Shown: in pieces, positions 6,403 to 9,690 of the stretch
Layout of the letters: the number at the start of each line of letters is the position of its first letter
Numbering within the stretch: the stretch's first letter is position 1
IMG/VR virus record: IMGVR_UViG_2551306491_000022
Source of the DNA: a virus
Taxonomy: Duplodnaviria > Heunggongvirae > Uroviricota > Caudoviricetes
Reading direction: 5' to 3' (one strand)
Length of the DNA stretch: 9,690 nucleotides
Program-made: the position numbers and the translations under genes
The notes under the pieces: model-generated
Seen by the model: only the letters and a program-made list of their open reading frames with translations
Told to the model about the DNA's origin: nothing
Databases searched by the model: none

Positions 6403-6485
6403 GGTGTAAGACACAATGTAAAATAACGGTGTCTTACACGTCAACCCTTCAAAATATTTTTTTTTCGTGTATATTGTCTTACACC
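6403..6485 (+). promoter_or_regulatory. Operator array and promoter of RHH module 1: three copies of GTGT-N3-ACAC palindrome
   Basis: GGTGTAAGACAC (6403-6414, inverted orientation), GGTGTCTTACACG (6428-6440), TTGTCTTACACC (6474-6485). Candidate -35 TTCAAA (6448-6453) and -10 TATATT (6470-6475) with 16-nt spacer. The third operator overlaps the -10 and start site. Confidence 0.5.
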
Positions 6486-6505
6486 AAAAACATGAGGGGT
6501 TAAAC

Positions 6506-6685
6506 ATGGCAACGGGGCCAAAGAATGCAAAATCACAATCTGTAACTGCACGTATTGCCCATGAAATTATTGAAGGCATGGAGAACGTGAAAGAAGAAGG
6601 TGAAAGCACGGGGCAGTTTATAAACGCAGCCATGCGCGGCGAAATCAAACGCCGCCAGCGTCGCAAGGCCAAAGAATCAGAATAA
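6506..6685 (+). CDS. Ribbon-helix-helix (CopG/Arc/MetJ-like) DNA-binding protein, 59 aa; putative repressor of module 1
   Basis: ATG at 6506 with GAGGGG 6 nt upstream (track start 6467 is GTG and would include the operator). Sequence KSQSVTARIAHEIIEGMENVKEEGESTGQFINAAMRGEI fits the RHH pattern of beta-strand, helix, G-x-S/T turn, helix, with a basic tail. Confidence 0.55.
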   Translation: MATGPKNAKSQSVTARIAHEIIEGMENVKEEGESTGQFINAAMRGEIKRRQRRKAKESE

Positions 6686-6690
6686 TCACT

Positions 6691-6734
6691 ATCAGCGCCG
6701 TGGTGTGAGGTACTACGGCGCATTGCTTTACAGG
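6691..6734 (+). repeat. Conserved 44-bp element with internal hairpin (copy 1), between the RHH gene and the downstream small gene
   Basis: ATCAGCGCCGTGGTGTGAGGTACTACGGCGCATTGCTTTACAGG is 43/44 identical to 7369-7412. Stem GCGCCGT(6695-6701) / ACGGCGC(6715-6721) with a 13-nt loop; the single difference is in the loop. Confidence 0.6.
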
Positions 6735-6742
6735 GCAGTATC

Positions 6743-6970
6743 ATGACCAACAACACACTATCACCAATACAAGACACGCAGACGCAAGAAGATGAAATCA
6801 TTCGGCAAAGGCAGTTAGAAACCTGTGCTCGCCTTGAAGCCGAACTGGCTAATCCTCTGAATATCCAACTAATACCGATAGAAATGAAACCTGGACTATT
6901 CGCGTTGGAGGCATTTTTAGCAAGCTGCCCACGGCGGCTAAAGTCCCGTAAGAATCGCCCGCCAGGATGA
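6743..6970 (+). CDS. Hypothetical small protein (75 aa), partner gene of RHH module 1
   Basis: ATG at 6743 with AGGG 7 nt upstream. N-terminus MTNNTLSPIQDTQTQ resembles MTNKESTDTPSQKT of the gene at 7421. TGA at 6968-6970. Confidence 0.45.
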   Translation: MTNNTLSPIQDTQTQEDEIIRQRQLETCARLEAELANPLNIQLIPIEMKPGLFALEAFLASCPRRLKSRKNRPPG

Positions 6971-7089
6971 GTACACAAAACCGAACTATGAAACGGATTA
7001 TTCCGTTTCCGGGGCGTTTGTGTGTGTATAAAGAGTAAGCTATGCTCTTTTATAGCCATAATCGTTACCTCAATTAATGGTTTGGTTAG

Positions 7090-7131
7090 ACGCCCCATAT
7101 GTGAGCCACCACTGCGGGGCGTTGTTTTTTG
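7090..7131 (+). terminator. Intrinsic terminator ending RHH module 1
   Basis: CGCCCC(7091-7096)...GGGGCG(7116-7121) stem followed by TTGTTTTTTG (7122-7131). Confidence 0.6.
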
Positions 7132-7147
7132 TATAACGGTAAGTACA

Positions 7148-7191
7148 ATGGTAATTACCATGTAACTATAGTAATTAAGGGTAATTACCAT
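7148..7191 (+). promoter_or_regulatory. Operator pair of RHH module 2: palindrome GGTAATTACC x2
   Basis: ATGGTAATTACCAT (7148-7161) is a perfect 14-bp palindrome. The second copy GGTAATTACC (7180-7189) sits between the Shine-Dalgarno and the ATG of the RHH gene. Centres are 30 bp apart. Candidate -10 TATAGT (7167-7172) lies between the two sites. Confidence 0.5.
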
Positions 7192-7363
7192 GTCAACACC
7201 ATTGGAAAAGCGATCGCCTCCATACCAAATGCGGCTACCAGAAGAATTCAGAGCACAACTTGAAGAGGCAGCGAAAGCAGACGGTGACACTTCTTTAGCC
7301 ACCTGGATCAAGCGAGTACTCCGAAAAGAATTACAGCAACGCGGTATTGAACCCAAAGGATAA
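7190..7363 (+). CDS. Arc-like ribbon-helix-helix DNA-binding protein, 57 aa (below the length cutoff of the ORF track); putative repressor of module 2
   Basis: ATG 7190 to TAA 7361-7363, Shine-Dalgarno AAGGG. Translation MSTPLEKRSPPYQMRLPEEFRAQLEEAAKADGDTSLATWIKRVLRKELQQRGIEPKG has the Arc/Mnt-type RHH pattern. The operator palindrome overlaps its start. Confidence 0.55.
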   Translation: MSTPLEKRSPPYQMRLPEEFRAQLEEAAKADGDTSLATWIKRVLRKELQQRGIEPKG

Positions 7364-7368
7364 AAAAC

Positions 7369-7412
7369 ATCAGCGCCGTGGCGTGAGGTACTACGGCGCA
7401 TTGCTTTACAGG
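7369..7412 (+). repeat. Conserved 44-bp element with internal hairpin (copy 2)
   Basis: ATCAGCGCCGTGGCGTGAGGTACTACGGCGCATTGCTTTACAGG, 43/44 identical to 6691-6734, at the same position relative to the RHH stop and the downstream ATG. Confidence 0.6.
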
Positions 7413-7420
7413 TACACACA

Positions 7421-7624
7421 ATGACCAATAAAGAATCAACCGATACACCATCGCAAAAAACGAACAGAGAGCACGAAAATATGGCGCTCGAGCATGAATC
7501 AGAAAGATTCGCACCATGCGCTTTTGTCCTTGATGAGTTTCTAAAAAAATATTCACGTTCTGAACGGATGAAAATGGCAGCACAATACGGCCCCAACAAG
7601 AAAGATAATTGCCCACCAGCCTGA
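7421..7624 (+). CDS. Hypothetical small protein (67 aa), partner gene of RHH module 2
   Basis: ATG at 7421 with AGGT 7 nt upstream; TGA at 7622-7624. N-terminal similarity to the 6743 gene product. Confidence 0.45.
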   Translation: MTNKESTDTPSQKTNREHENMALEHESERFAPCAFVLDEFLKKYSRSERMKMAAQYGPNKKDNCPPA

Positions 7625-7691
7625 TCGCGGTTATCATGCCCAAGCTTATGATTGTTGACACATACGGCGCAGCGGGTTAATTGTTCAGAAA

Positions 7692-7720
7692 GGTGGCTCC
7701 ATTTCGGGGCCGCTTTTTTT
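7692..7720 (+). terminator. Intrinsic terminator between the convergent plus-strand module 2 and alpA
   Basis: GGTGGCTCC(7692-7700), loop ATTTC, GGGGCCGC(7706-7713), then TTTTTTT(7714-7720). Stem includes G-U pairs. An A-run on the other side could allow weak bidirectional action. Confidence 0.6.
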
Positions 7721-7745
7721 ATGTTCATCATTTGCCCTATATATG

Positions 7746-7952
7746 TTAAGCGGTCGTTCCGCGCGCTTCTTGTTCTCGTTCTTTCATCCATGCGATTACG
7801 TCTTCCTCATACCATCCGCGACGGCGCAAACCGACACGAAAACCCTGCGGGAATTCTCCGGCGTTGATCATGCTTTGCAGCGTGCTGTCTGCCTTAATGT
7901 GGATAAGTTTTTTTACTTCCTGGCGAAAGATGACTTTTTTGATTGCTTCCAT
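7746..7952 (-). CDS. alpA: AlpA-family transcriptional regulator (phage excisionase-like DNA-binding protein)
   Basis: 68-aa ORF, ATG with GAGGT upstream. FRQEVKKLIHIKADSTLQSMINAGEFPQGFRVGLRRRGWYEEDVIAWMKER fits the AlpA pattern (R.EV....G.S.ST.Y.....G.FP.P.K.G.R...W...EV..W). Position next to a P4-type integrase is typical. Confidence 0.8.
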   Translation of the reverse strand: MEAIKKVIFRQEVKKLIHIKADSTLQSMINAGEFPQGFRVGLRRRGWYEEDVIAWMKEREQEARGTTA

Positions 7953-8448: not shown

Positions 8449-9690
8449 CTAAACGGCTCGGATACCCCTTTTACCACTGGCGAGGGTTACGCCCGTCGCC
8501 GCAGCCTCGACAAATTCGCCCCACCAGCGCATAAGCACGATGCGTTTTTCTATGTAGTTGCTCCGGTTGTATGCCCGTCTGACTTCGTTGGTGTCGACGT
8601 GGGCAAGTGCGGCCTCTATTACGTCCGGCTCAAAGCCTTCTTCGTTCGCTGCTGTGCTGAATATGGCGCGTAATCCATGAGACACCAGCACGCCAGCGAA
8701 TCCCATGCGTCGTAATGCTGCGTTAGCGGTCTGGCTGTTCATCGGCTGCTGTGGGTCTTTCAGACTCGGGAAAACATAATCGCGGTGGTGGCTGATTGGT
8801 TTCATAGCCTCCAGCACTGCCATAGCCTGGTCACAAAGCGGGATAACGTGGTCGCGGCGCATCTTCATGCGTCCGGCGGGTATGGTCCAGCGTTGCGCTT
8901 CCATGTCGATTTCTTCCCAGCGTGCCGACGATGCTTCAACGGGACGGGTTACGGTCAGTAACTGCCATTCAATCAGTAATCTGGTCTGCCGTTCTGTTGC
9001 CGATACTGATAAAGCCTGCATAAGCTCCGGCAGCTGTTCGGGGCGGATTGTTGGCATATGTTTTTTTACAGGGGAGGGGAACGCCTTACGCACATTCATA
9101 GCCGGATTGGCATCAATCATCCCACTATTGGCGGCGTAATCCATTACCTCATTTATACGCTGTAAAACTCGCTTGAGCGTTTCCAGGTTGCCACGTTCCT
9201 TGATGGGGGTAAGCACCTCAACGAACCTGCGAGCGGTCAGGGTGTCTATTGGCGTGTTGCCGATGAACGGGAATACATATTTTTCCAGCGATCGCCAGAT
9301 GTCTTTAATCGTATTGGGGGCCAGATTCTGGCTGATTTTCACCTGGTACCATGCTGTTGCCACATTTTCGAACGTGTTCCCTTGTCTTCGGGCCTCTGTC
9401 TCTCTTTTTTGCCTCTCGTGGTCCTGCGGGTCAGTTCCGGCACGAATTAACGCCCTGTACTCGCTACGGCGTTTTCTGGCATCAGCCAGGGAAACATCAT
9501 CAAGCGATCCAAAACTCAGCAATATTCTTTTTTTGTCCGATGGTCGGTAGTAGGAAAATCTCCAGAGTTTTGATCCGGACGGTTTGATCAGGAGAAAAAG
9601 CCCTCCGCCGTCCTGTAGGGTGTATTCCTTTTCTGCTGGTCTGGCTGCTTTGATCTGTACTGTGGTTAATGGGGGTGTTTTTCTCGCCAT
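8449..9690 (-). CDS. int: Tyrosine site-specific integrase, P4 family
   Basis: 413-aa ORF whose ATG is the last three bases of the window. N-terminus MARKTPPLTTVQIKAARPAEKEYTLQDGGGLFLLIKPSGSKLWRFSYY is the conserved P4-type integrase N-terminal signature. C-terminal catalytic region has HGLRAIFST...RAYNRSNY (His/Arg and Tyr motifs). Confidence 0.9.
   Translation of the reverse strand: MARKTPPLTTVQIKAARPAEKEYTLQDGGGLFLLIKPSGSKLWRFSYYRPSDKKRILLSFGSLDDVSLADARKRRSEYRALIRAGTDPQDHERQKRETEARRQGNTFENVATAWYQVKISQNLAPNTIKDIWRSLEKYVFPFIGNTPIDTLTARRFVEVLTPIKERGNLETLKRVLQRINEVMDYAANSGMIDANPAMNVRKAFPSPVKKHMPTIRPEQLPELMQALSVSATERQTRLLIEWQLLTVTRPVEASSARWEEIDMEAQRWTIPAGRMKMRRDHVIPLCDQAMAVLEAMKPISHHRDYVFPSLKDPQQPMNSQTANAALRRMGFAGVLVSHGLRAIFSTAANEEGFEPDVIEAALAHVDTNEVRRAYNRSNYIEKRIVLMRWWGEFVEAAATGVTLASGKRGIRAV

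Follow-up and report, generated by a model that had tools for sequence, protein, structure and literature searches.

What do two copies of a short palindrome control when they flank the start of a small ribbon-helix-helix (RHH) gene in a satellite island? The stretch of DNA analysed here (9,690 nucleotides; the window) is such an island of about 9.7 kb, with its integrase beside tRNA-Pro. An earlier note on positions 7148–7191 had proposed an autoregulatory operator pair for the Arc-like protein encoded immediately downstream. The part of this proposal that ties the sites to the protein stood, as the sites at the start of the gene track the class of RHH protein and the gene is real. The proposal was too narrow in its scope, having missed a stronger promoter on the opposite strand that is found at 53 of 60 related loci.

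The only perfect 14-bp palindrome that a palindrome scan found in the window, ATGGTAATTACCAT, can be read directly at 7148–7161 (site 1). Its 10-bp core, GGTAATTACC (7150–7159), recurs exactly at 7180–7189 in a second putative operator, site 2 (AGGGTAATTACCAT, 7178–7191), with the ATG of the RHH gene directly after it at 7190. As the earlier note had described, the two cores are 30 bp apart from start to start, and site 2 lies between a Shine–Dalgarno (SD)-like TAAGG (7176–7180) and the ATG. The repeat unit is longer than stated there, with AATGGTAATTACCATGT and AAGGGTAATTACCATGT matching at 16 of 17 positions. No further exact copy of the core was found among all 9,690 bases. Because about half of simulated windows (Markov-1) contain some 14-bp palindrome, a single one is unremarkable; two identical 10-bp palindromes 10–60 bp apart arose in 2 of 1,500 such simulations. 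A possible weak third site, GGTAAGTACA (7138–7147), sits 12 bp upstream of site 1 with two mismatches to the core, and a look-alike recurs at this position in several relatives, not in all lineages. We dropped an inner look-alike, AGTAATTAAG (7170–7179), as a fourth operator, since the relatives do not conserve it.

The gene beside the sites, RHH2 (7190–7363, plus strand), encodes a 57-residue Arc-like RHH protein, a presumed repressor. Its 93 homologues share 63–96% identity across many Gammaproteobacteria, and their alignment has an Arc-like pattern, P(Q/P)YQMRLPEEF, followed by two helices. RHH2 matches PHROG 228 ‘Arc-like repressor’ over residues 6–55 (E = 4.9e-7). It falls below the thresholds of Pfam Arc (PF03869; 16.5 bits versus a gathering score of 20.4, E = 0.0079) and NCBIfam YlcI/YnfO (NF041551; 20.1 bits versus 30, E = 4.8e-4); by the Pfam Arc model it is a distant relative and not a certified member. 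The AlphaFold2 monomer (pLDDT 75.8) is extended or unstructured at residues 1–17 and has helices at 18–31 and 36–50; we expect the β-strand only once the protein dimerises. With this model, the top Foldseek matches in the PDB were AmrZ, Arc, ParG, NikR and ParD, and nearly all matches were RHH proteins, at E-values that are weak (0.95 or above), as expected for a chain of only 57 residues. Searching PDB sequences with a profile brought up designed helical repeat proteins, which we discarded as a matter of helix-hairpin composition, not homology; AmrZ reached only E = 0.73. Taken together, AlphaFold2, Foldseek and PHROG 228 fit the RHH arrangement of an N-terminal β-strand and two helices in about 45 residues, so that membership of the RHH superfamily is supported by fold and PHROG profile and not by the Pfam threshold. 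Codon variation among 27 distinct 57-codon homologues falls mainly on third positions (summed entropy 27.5, 15.5 and 67.2 for the three positions), with 635 synonymous versus 305 non-synonymous differences. We conclude that RHH2 is a real, conserved RHH-type gene and that the claim of an Arc-like protein immediately downstream of the sites was sound.

Scanning one genome per species yielded 68 loci with RHH2 homologues, whose upstream regions we aligned on the start codon. The paired sites keep their positions in about 60 loci of Enterobacterales, Pasteurellaceae, Orbales and Aeromonadales, while the spacer drifts and conserves only a −10-like ATnATA. The equivalent of site 2 is a 10-bp palindrome at −10 to −1 in most of the 60 loci, nearly always perfect, and that of site 1 lies at −37 to −45, 27–35 bp further upstream. 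Class-1 relatives have site 1 at −40/−41 from the start codon, often with an imperfect left half (GGTCATTACC, GGTCGTTACC). Equivalents of the third site occur at −52/−53 as TGTAATTACA, TGTCATTACA or CGTAATTACA in loci L002, L003 and L014–L017, and L021 and L025 carry a second GGTCGTTACC there. We ruled out fixed helical phasing of the site pair, which could have backed cooperative binding, because the spacing varies between classes (27, 30–31 and 31–35 bp). The module is present in many other genera, and a matching stretch (at least 80% of 7082–7365 covered) occurs in 496 of 5,426 complete E. coli genomes (about 9%).

The genes around the module are those of a phage satellite. On the minus strand, the window encodes the integrase (8449–9690), an AlpA-like helix-turn-helix (HTH) protein (7746–7952; PHROG 66/2790, E = 1e-7, below the Pfam cut-off), an icd-like gene (6113–6313), a DUF4222 gene, a RepA-type helicase (3962–5371; AAA_25, 3.7e-44), an SSB and a ClpP-protease/major-capsid fusion (540–2429). 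The non-coding stretch at 315–516 is 89–91% identical to Stx1 and Stx2 phages and lies in VT1-Sakai between the Rz and terminase genes; it is probably a helper-type cos site. The same match hints at which phages package the island. Gram-negative PICIs and cf-PICIs are islands of about 10–15 kb at a fixed attachment site, with int, alpA, replication and packaging or capsid genes and a cos or pac site like that of a helper; the window fits this composition, and we read the element as a satellite of this type integrated at tRNA-Pro. In E. coli O157:H7, the same module belongs to an island with int, alpA and RepA and with genes for major capsid, decoration and small terminase proteins.

Two promoters are predicted to face each other across the palindromes, both of them, with their start sites, from consensus matches. 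The leftward promoter, P-left (7168–7196, minus strand), combines a −35 TTGACA (7196–7191), a 17-bp spacer and a −10 TACTAT (7173–7168), with a start at about 7161. It has 10 of 12 consensus matches in a consensus scan and a position weight matrix (PWM) score of 13.6, versus a background 99th percentile of 11.9. The rightward promoter of RHH2, P-right (7122–7149, plus strand), has a −35 TTGTTT (7122–7127), a 16-bp spacer and a −10 TACAAT (7144–7149), with a start at about 7156, and is the weaker prediction (PWM score 9.2 versus a background 95th percentile of 9.9). In the PWM scan, P-left was constant in position at 53 of 60 loci, with scores of 11–15.5. The P-right −10 ends at −41/−42, the left edge of site 1, at 28 of 60 loci, and class-2 loci have TTGCAA-17/18-TGTAAT with the −10 inside site 1. 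The P-left −35 is the complement of TGTCAA, from Met-Ser codons 1 and 2 of the RHH gene; almost all loci encode this Ser as TCA, a choice that keeps TTGACA intact.

Both sites fall on predicted elements of this promoter pair. Site 2 fills the P-left spacer beside the −35 and site 1 covers the predicted P-left start; since P-right faces P-left, site 1, abutting the P-right −10, overlies both predicted starts. The predicted promoter and translation start of the presumed repressor are both overlapped, by site 1 at the −10 and by site 2 in the SD–ATG gap. To the left of P-left, relatives always have a gene starting at about 130 nt, behind a conserved leader: icd-like, P4-alpha-like primase or other. 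In E. coli O157:H7, a single module stands directly upstream of the icd-like/RepA/capsid operon of a cf-PICI-type island. Module B of the window faces only a 16-codon truncated icd-like remnant (ATG 7059–7057, minus strand). The strong promoter is not intact everywhere, since the O157:H7 −10 (L070 7068–7110) reads TGCTAT, not TACTAT, and has lost the key A at position 2; P-left may be weakened in that lineage.

A second module in the same island repeats this arrangement. Between alpA and icd, two plus-strand modules, A with RHH1 and B with RHH2, share the order of a G+C-rich hairpin with T-run, repeated sites, a small RHH gene, a second hairpin and a small open reading frame (ORF). Module A has three putative operators, GTGT(AAG/CTT)ACAC, at 6404–6414, 6429–6439 and 6475–6485, upstream of RHH1 (6506–6685, plus strand), which belongs to the YlcI/YnfO family (64.8 bits to NF041551, cut-off 30). 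Its predicted minus-strand promoter (6444–6415; TTGACG 6444–6439, 18-bp spacer, TACATT 6420–6415) has one site in the spacer and one at the start, the same geometry as in module B. That the operator differs while the layout stays the same speaks for each repressor having its own operator type. RHH1 and RHH2 gave no BLASTP alignment; the paralogy of the modules lies in their layout and flanks, not in the sequences of their proteins. A third module type, in locus L071, repeats the layout, again with a different operator.

These findings bear on the reading closest to the original proposal, in which the sites serve simple autoregulation, controlling just the RHH2 promoter and translation start, and P-left goes unused. 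As a rule, Arc, Mnt, CopG and many RHH antitoxins repress themselves. The placement of site 1 against the RHH2 −10 and of site 2 between SD and ATG speaks for this reading, and it gains from the truncated remnant that P-left faces here and from the damaged −10 in O157:H7. However, P-left is stronger than P-right, scoring above the 99th percentile, and more constant; the TCA codon keeps its −35, a gene always lies to its left, and module A has the same two-promoter layout. We therefore regard autoregulation alone as unlikely and favour a repressor switch with two facing promoters.

The identity of the binding protein was addressed by comparing site sequences with the proteins encoded beside them. 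Five specificity classes emerged, in which the site co-varies with the N-terminal arm and β-strand of the RHH2 homologue: arm/strand RSP(Q/P)(Y/F)QMRL with GGTAATTACC; KTDQYQ(I/L)RL with TGTAATTACA; RSPQFPMRL, in both Citrobacter and Photorhabdus, with GGTATATACC; GNPPFQFRL with GTGTAATTACAC, or GTGTATATACAC in an E. coli copy; and, in Pasteurellaceae, KS(Q/T)QYQ(I/L)RL with (T/A)GTAATTACA. The site centre tracks residue 13 and the outer bases track residues 9–10, in a co-variation that spans related sequences and holds few independent switches, about four or five. A change of β-strand Gln13 to Pro accompanies a change of the centre from AATT to TATA, and an N-terminal arm with Ser-Pro versus Thr-Asp and others accompanies outer bases GG..CC versus TG..CA. 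Yersinia similis (L017 and L049) and Photorhabdus heterorhabditis (L009 and L034) each carry two classes in one genome, with separate sites for each class. RHH proteins act as homodimers that insert paired β-strands into the major groove of a symmetric or repeated site; the palindromes here co-vary with residues 9–13 of the arm and strand.

A different protein could bind the sites instead, be it RHH1, the AlpA-like regulator, a helper-phage protein or a host factor. AlpA is the known activator of Gram-negative PICIs (PMC6092414) and its gene is 550 bp away, and the assignment to RHH2 comes from sequence comparison. Yet the site sequence follows the arm and strand class of RHH2 in every lineage examined. 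A tblastn search (E 1e-4) detected no homologue of RHH1 and no AlpA of the type in this window beside the 68 loci, although diverged AlpA-like genes lie near some. RHH1 has its own distinct repeats at the equivalent positions, and co-resident modules keep distinct sites. On these grounds we rejected RHH1 as the binder: with no RHH1 homologue detected beside the RHH2 homologues, its binding to the GGTAATTACC sites is unlikely, and a different binder of any kind seems to us quite improbable. Because the sites follow the RHH2 class, coexist as separate sets and occur without a detected RHH1 neighbour, we conclude that they belong with RHH2, and we consider it likely that both GGTAATTACC sites are RHH2 operators.

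Leftward of the promoters, the window contains a conserved two-hairpin RNA element (7052–7131, plus strand), made of an anti-SD hairpin with the loop CCUC and a G+C-rich, terminator-like hairpin with a U-run. A second copy, 80% identical, lies at 6305–6388 on the plus strand (repeat at 6335–6388). The element lies antisense to the first leftward gene, here the truncated icd-like remnant, at that gene's ribosome-binding site and start codon, and its CCUC loop is complementary to the SD of the gene. In the alignment, 94.8% of cells are paired and 13 of 18 pairs have compensatory changes, and none of 500 shuffles was as good; the minimum free energy is −28.6 kcal/mol (z −3.6). By our own tally from the alignment tables, about 64 G.U cells far exceed about 5 A.C cells, which indicates that the plus strand is the one selected. 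A promoter-like TTGTGT (7018–7023)-17-TATGCT (7041–7046) precedes the element, a relative placement shared by about 20 loci; some 30 nt separate this match from the 5′ end of the element downstream. We infer that the element is an RNA about 78 nt long, predicted to start near 7053, that acts in cis as an antisense to the ribosome-binding site of the first early gene. The hairpin alone (query 1–53 covered) also matches many E. coli islands that lack RHH2. Scanned against Rfam (E up to 1), the whole window had no family at the hairpins or the operators and only two weak unrelated hits, after which we dropped the idea of a P1/P4 c4/CI RNA for the hairpins.

The palindromes themselves might act at the RNA level, the two copies pairing as a 12-bp stem in read-through transcripts and hiding the RHH2 ribosome-binding site and AUG. 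Their arms at 7148–7159 and 7180–7191 are 100% complementary over 12 nt around a 20-nt loop, and the plus-strand operon of module A ends just upstream, making read-through conceivable. However, with the predicted starts at 7156 and 7161 neither transcript contains both arms, and a conserved terminator lies between module A and the sites. Relatives in which one half of site 1 diverges (GGTCATTACC, GGTCGTTACC) have no compensating change in site 2, which fits the tolerance of a protein for half-sites, not base pairing. We judge RNA-level action to be very unlikely.

A 75-nt repeat follows each RHH gene (6679–6753 and 7357–7431; 81% identical), composed of the hairpin GCGCCGTGG.GTGAGGTACTACGGCGC, then ATTGCTTTACAGG and then the start of a small ORF, ATGACCAA. 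The ORFs begun in this way, orfA2 (6743–6970) and orfB2 (7421–7624), encode products whose resemblance is limited to the first residues and a C-terminal N(R/C)PP motif; they gave no BLASTP alignment, and the 67-residue orfB2 product matched no toxin family in Pfam or NCBIfam and only a PHROG of unknown function. That RHH2 is an antitoxin paired with this product, with the palindromes as the toxin–antitoxin operator, is hardly credible and was rejected, despite the HicB-family antitoxin labels that some sources give to RHH2 homologues and the small ORF that follows RHH2, as the ORF was found beside none of the 68 loci, where neighbours vary and an AlpA-like gene or integrase directly follows the RHH2 homologue in many cases.

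Modules of this kind are stacked in tandem between alpA and icd. The window has two (6335–7624) and O157:H7 has a single one; E. coli 07-4299 carries three, and strain W24 carries two that are of other types (stacks in relatives at L071 7740–9730 and L111 2230–3550). Each stacked module carries a different operator sequence, and the outer modules retain a truncated icd-like 5′ end (window 7010–7059, compare 6264–6313).

The same region is open on the other strand. A minus-strand frame without stop runs for 501 codons (6304–7806), antisense to both RHH modules; its ATG (7791) overlaps the 3′ end of alpA and its stop (6301–6303) is just past the icd-like ATG (6313). Shuffles of the region gave longest open stretches with a median of 86 and a maximum of 189 codons. 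In O157:H7, an open stretch of 333 codons begins right after the alpA stop and enters icd in frame. Antisense open frames in relatives include L070 6785–7783, L071 7840–9231 and 9170–9934, and L111 2259–3053 and 2992–3741, and the frame is kept in about half of the relatives. We rejected the 496-residue antisense ORF as a real protein, given that it has no PHROG match and that non-synonymous changes exceed synonymous ones in its frame. The frame may be a translated bridge that shields AlpA-driven read-through from Rho. In O157:H7, the antisense open frame is entered in RefSeq as an incomplete ‘Icd-like’ pseudogene (L070 7133–7726, about 7210–7800 of the window), and the RHH2 homologue on the other strand is unannotated in the two O157:H7 records whose features were read.

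We propose that RHH2 is the repressor of a PICI/cf-PICI-type satellite and that the two GGTAATTACC palindromes are its operators. P-left, in related islands, would drive the early operon of icd-like and helicase/primase genes, and P-right would make RHH2. With site 2 in the P-left spacer and the SD–ATG gap, and site 1 on both starts, RHH2 bound at the two sites would silence the early operon and hold down its own production. Each palindrome would probably take one RHH dimer centred on its dyad, which fits the dependence of the centre on residue 13 and of the outer bases on residues 9–10. In this window, module B is the outer of two, and P-left would read through the icd-like remnant and the antisense strand of module A to the icd-like gene at 6313. 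The analysis shows the sequences, how they are conserved, their co-variation with the protein and the promoter-like matches. Binding, stoichiometry, transcription starts and the direction of regulation are all inferred here. We hold this model as a whole, with RHH2 operators, a satellite and facing promoters, to be probable.

A wider reading is possible and, in our view, tentative. RHH2 and its palindromes might form the repressor switch so far missing from the picture of Gram-negative PICIs and cf-PICIs, a portable immunity cassette of three parts: an Arc-like repressor, face-to-face promoters and a cis-antisense RNA masking the ribosome-binding site of the first early gene. Such cassettes would exist in at least five specificities, and two or three of them could stand in tandem between alpA and the early operon, so that one island could answer several signals, with AlpA read-through along the stop-free frame overriding the repressors.

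Transcription in Gram-negative PICIs is described as unidirectional and activated by AlpA, with the global repressor unclear (PMC6092414), and control has been assigned to the activator AlpA, a repressor not being needed (PMC6092414; 10.1101/2022.09.08.507074). This published account of control by AlpA alone counts against a repressor switch. The accessible literature on RHH proteins with satellites, Icd-like, YlcI/YnfO and EcCIEDL933/cf-PICI contained no description of the module and no repressor for this class of element. We conclude that the module is an uncharacterised example of a familiar type of switch, in a class of elements for which no such switch has been described. A repressor/operator module read the opposite way would add a second layer of control to islands now explained by AlpA alone, including the capsid-forming O157:H7 type. 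If the model is true, two 10-bp sites and a 57-residue protein are precise, mutable targets for studying how these islands stay silent and fire, and the natural specificity classes form a compact set of putatively orthogonal RHH repressor/operator pairs.

Several known systems resemble the module in part. YlcI/YnfO (NF041551) comprises short RHH-like proteins of prophages and satellites with the same module layout as RHH2, which matches the family only below threshold; our literature search found no functional study of them. AmrZ of Pseudomonas aeruginosa (PDB 3qoq) is the best solved-structure match of RHH2 (Foldseek rank 1, 30–32% identity), a statistically weak one. It has the RHH fold and an N-terminal arm that contributes to DNA recognition, as in our reading of RHH2; unlike RHH2, it is a global regulator encoded on the chromosome, carries a C-terminal region for oligomerisation and binds unrelated sites.

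Another close parallel is the immI region of Salmonella phage P22, where Arc and Mnt have operators at opposing promoters and a small antisense RNA, sar, is encoded. Arc and Mnt, like RHH2, are small RHH repressors of about 50–80 residues; their short symmetric or pseudosymmetric operators lie over the −10/+1 of close opposing promoters, a layout like the present one, and they repress themselves, as proposed for RHH2. The Arc segment PQFNLRWP.. aligns with PPYQMRLP.. of RHH2, and Arc is among its best fold matches. In P22, however, one 21-bp operator is taken by an Arc tetramer, whereas here two separate, perfect 10–14-bp palindromes stand 30 bp apart. The P22 target is an antirepressor and the target here would be the icd-like/replication operon of a satellite, predicted from sequence, with a protein similarity below the Pfam cut-off.

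The switches of phages P2 (Pe/Pc) and 186 (pR/pL) also have promoters that fire toward each other over a short overlap. As in the module, a small repressor acts at repeated sites around a strong −10/+1; their repressors are HTH proteins, whereas RHH2 has the RHH fold, and the predicted promoter overlap here is only about 5 nt. In SaPIs and Gram-positive PICIs, the repressors Stl and Rpr are encoded beside int, opposite to the replication and packaging operon, the same position and presumed role as RHH2 (PMC6092414). Stl proteins are larger HTH proteins that are removed by helper-phage proteins and differ from RHH2 in fold; an Stl/Rpr-like role for RHH2, silencing the early operon, would fit its position and its predicted operator and promoter geometry.
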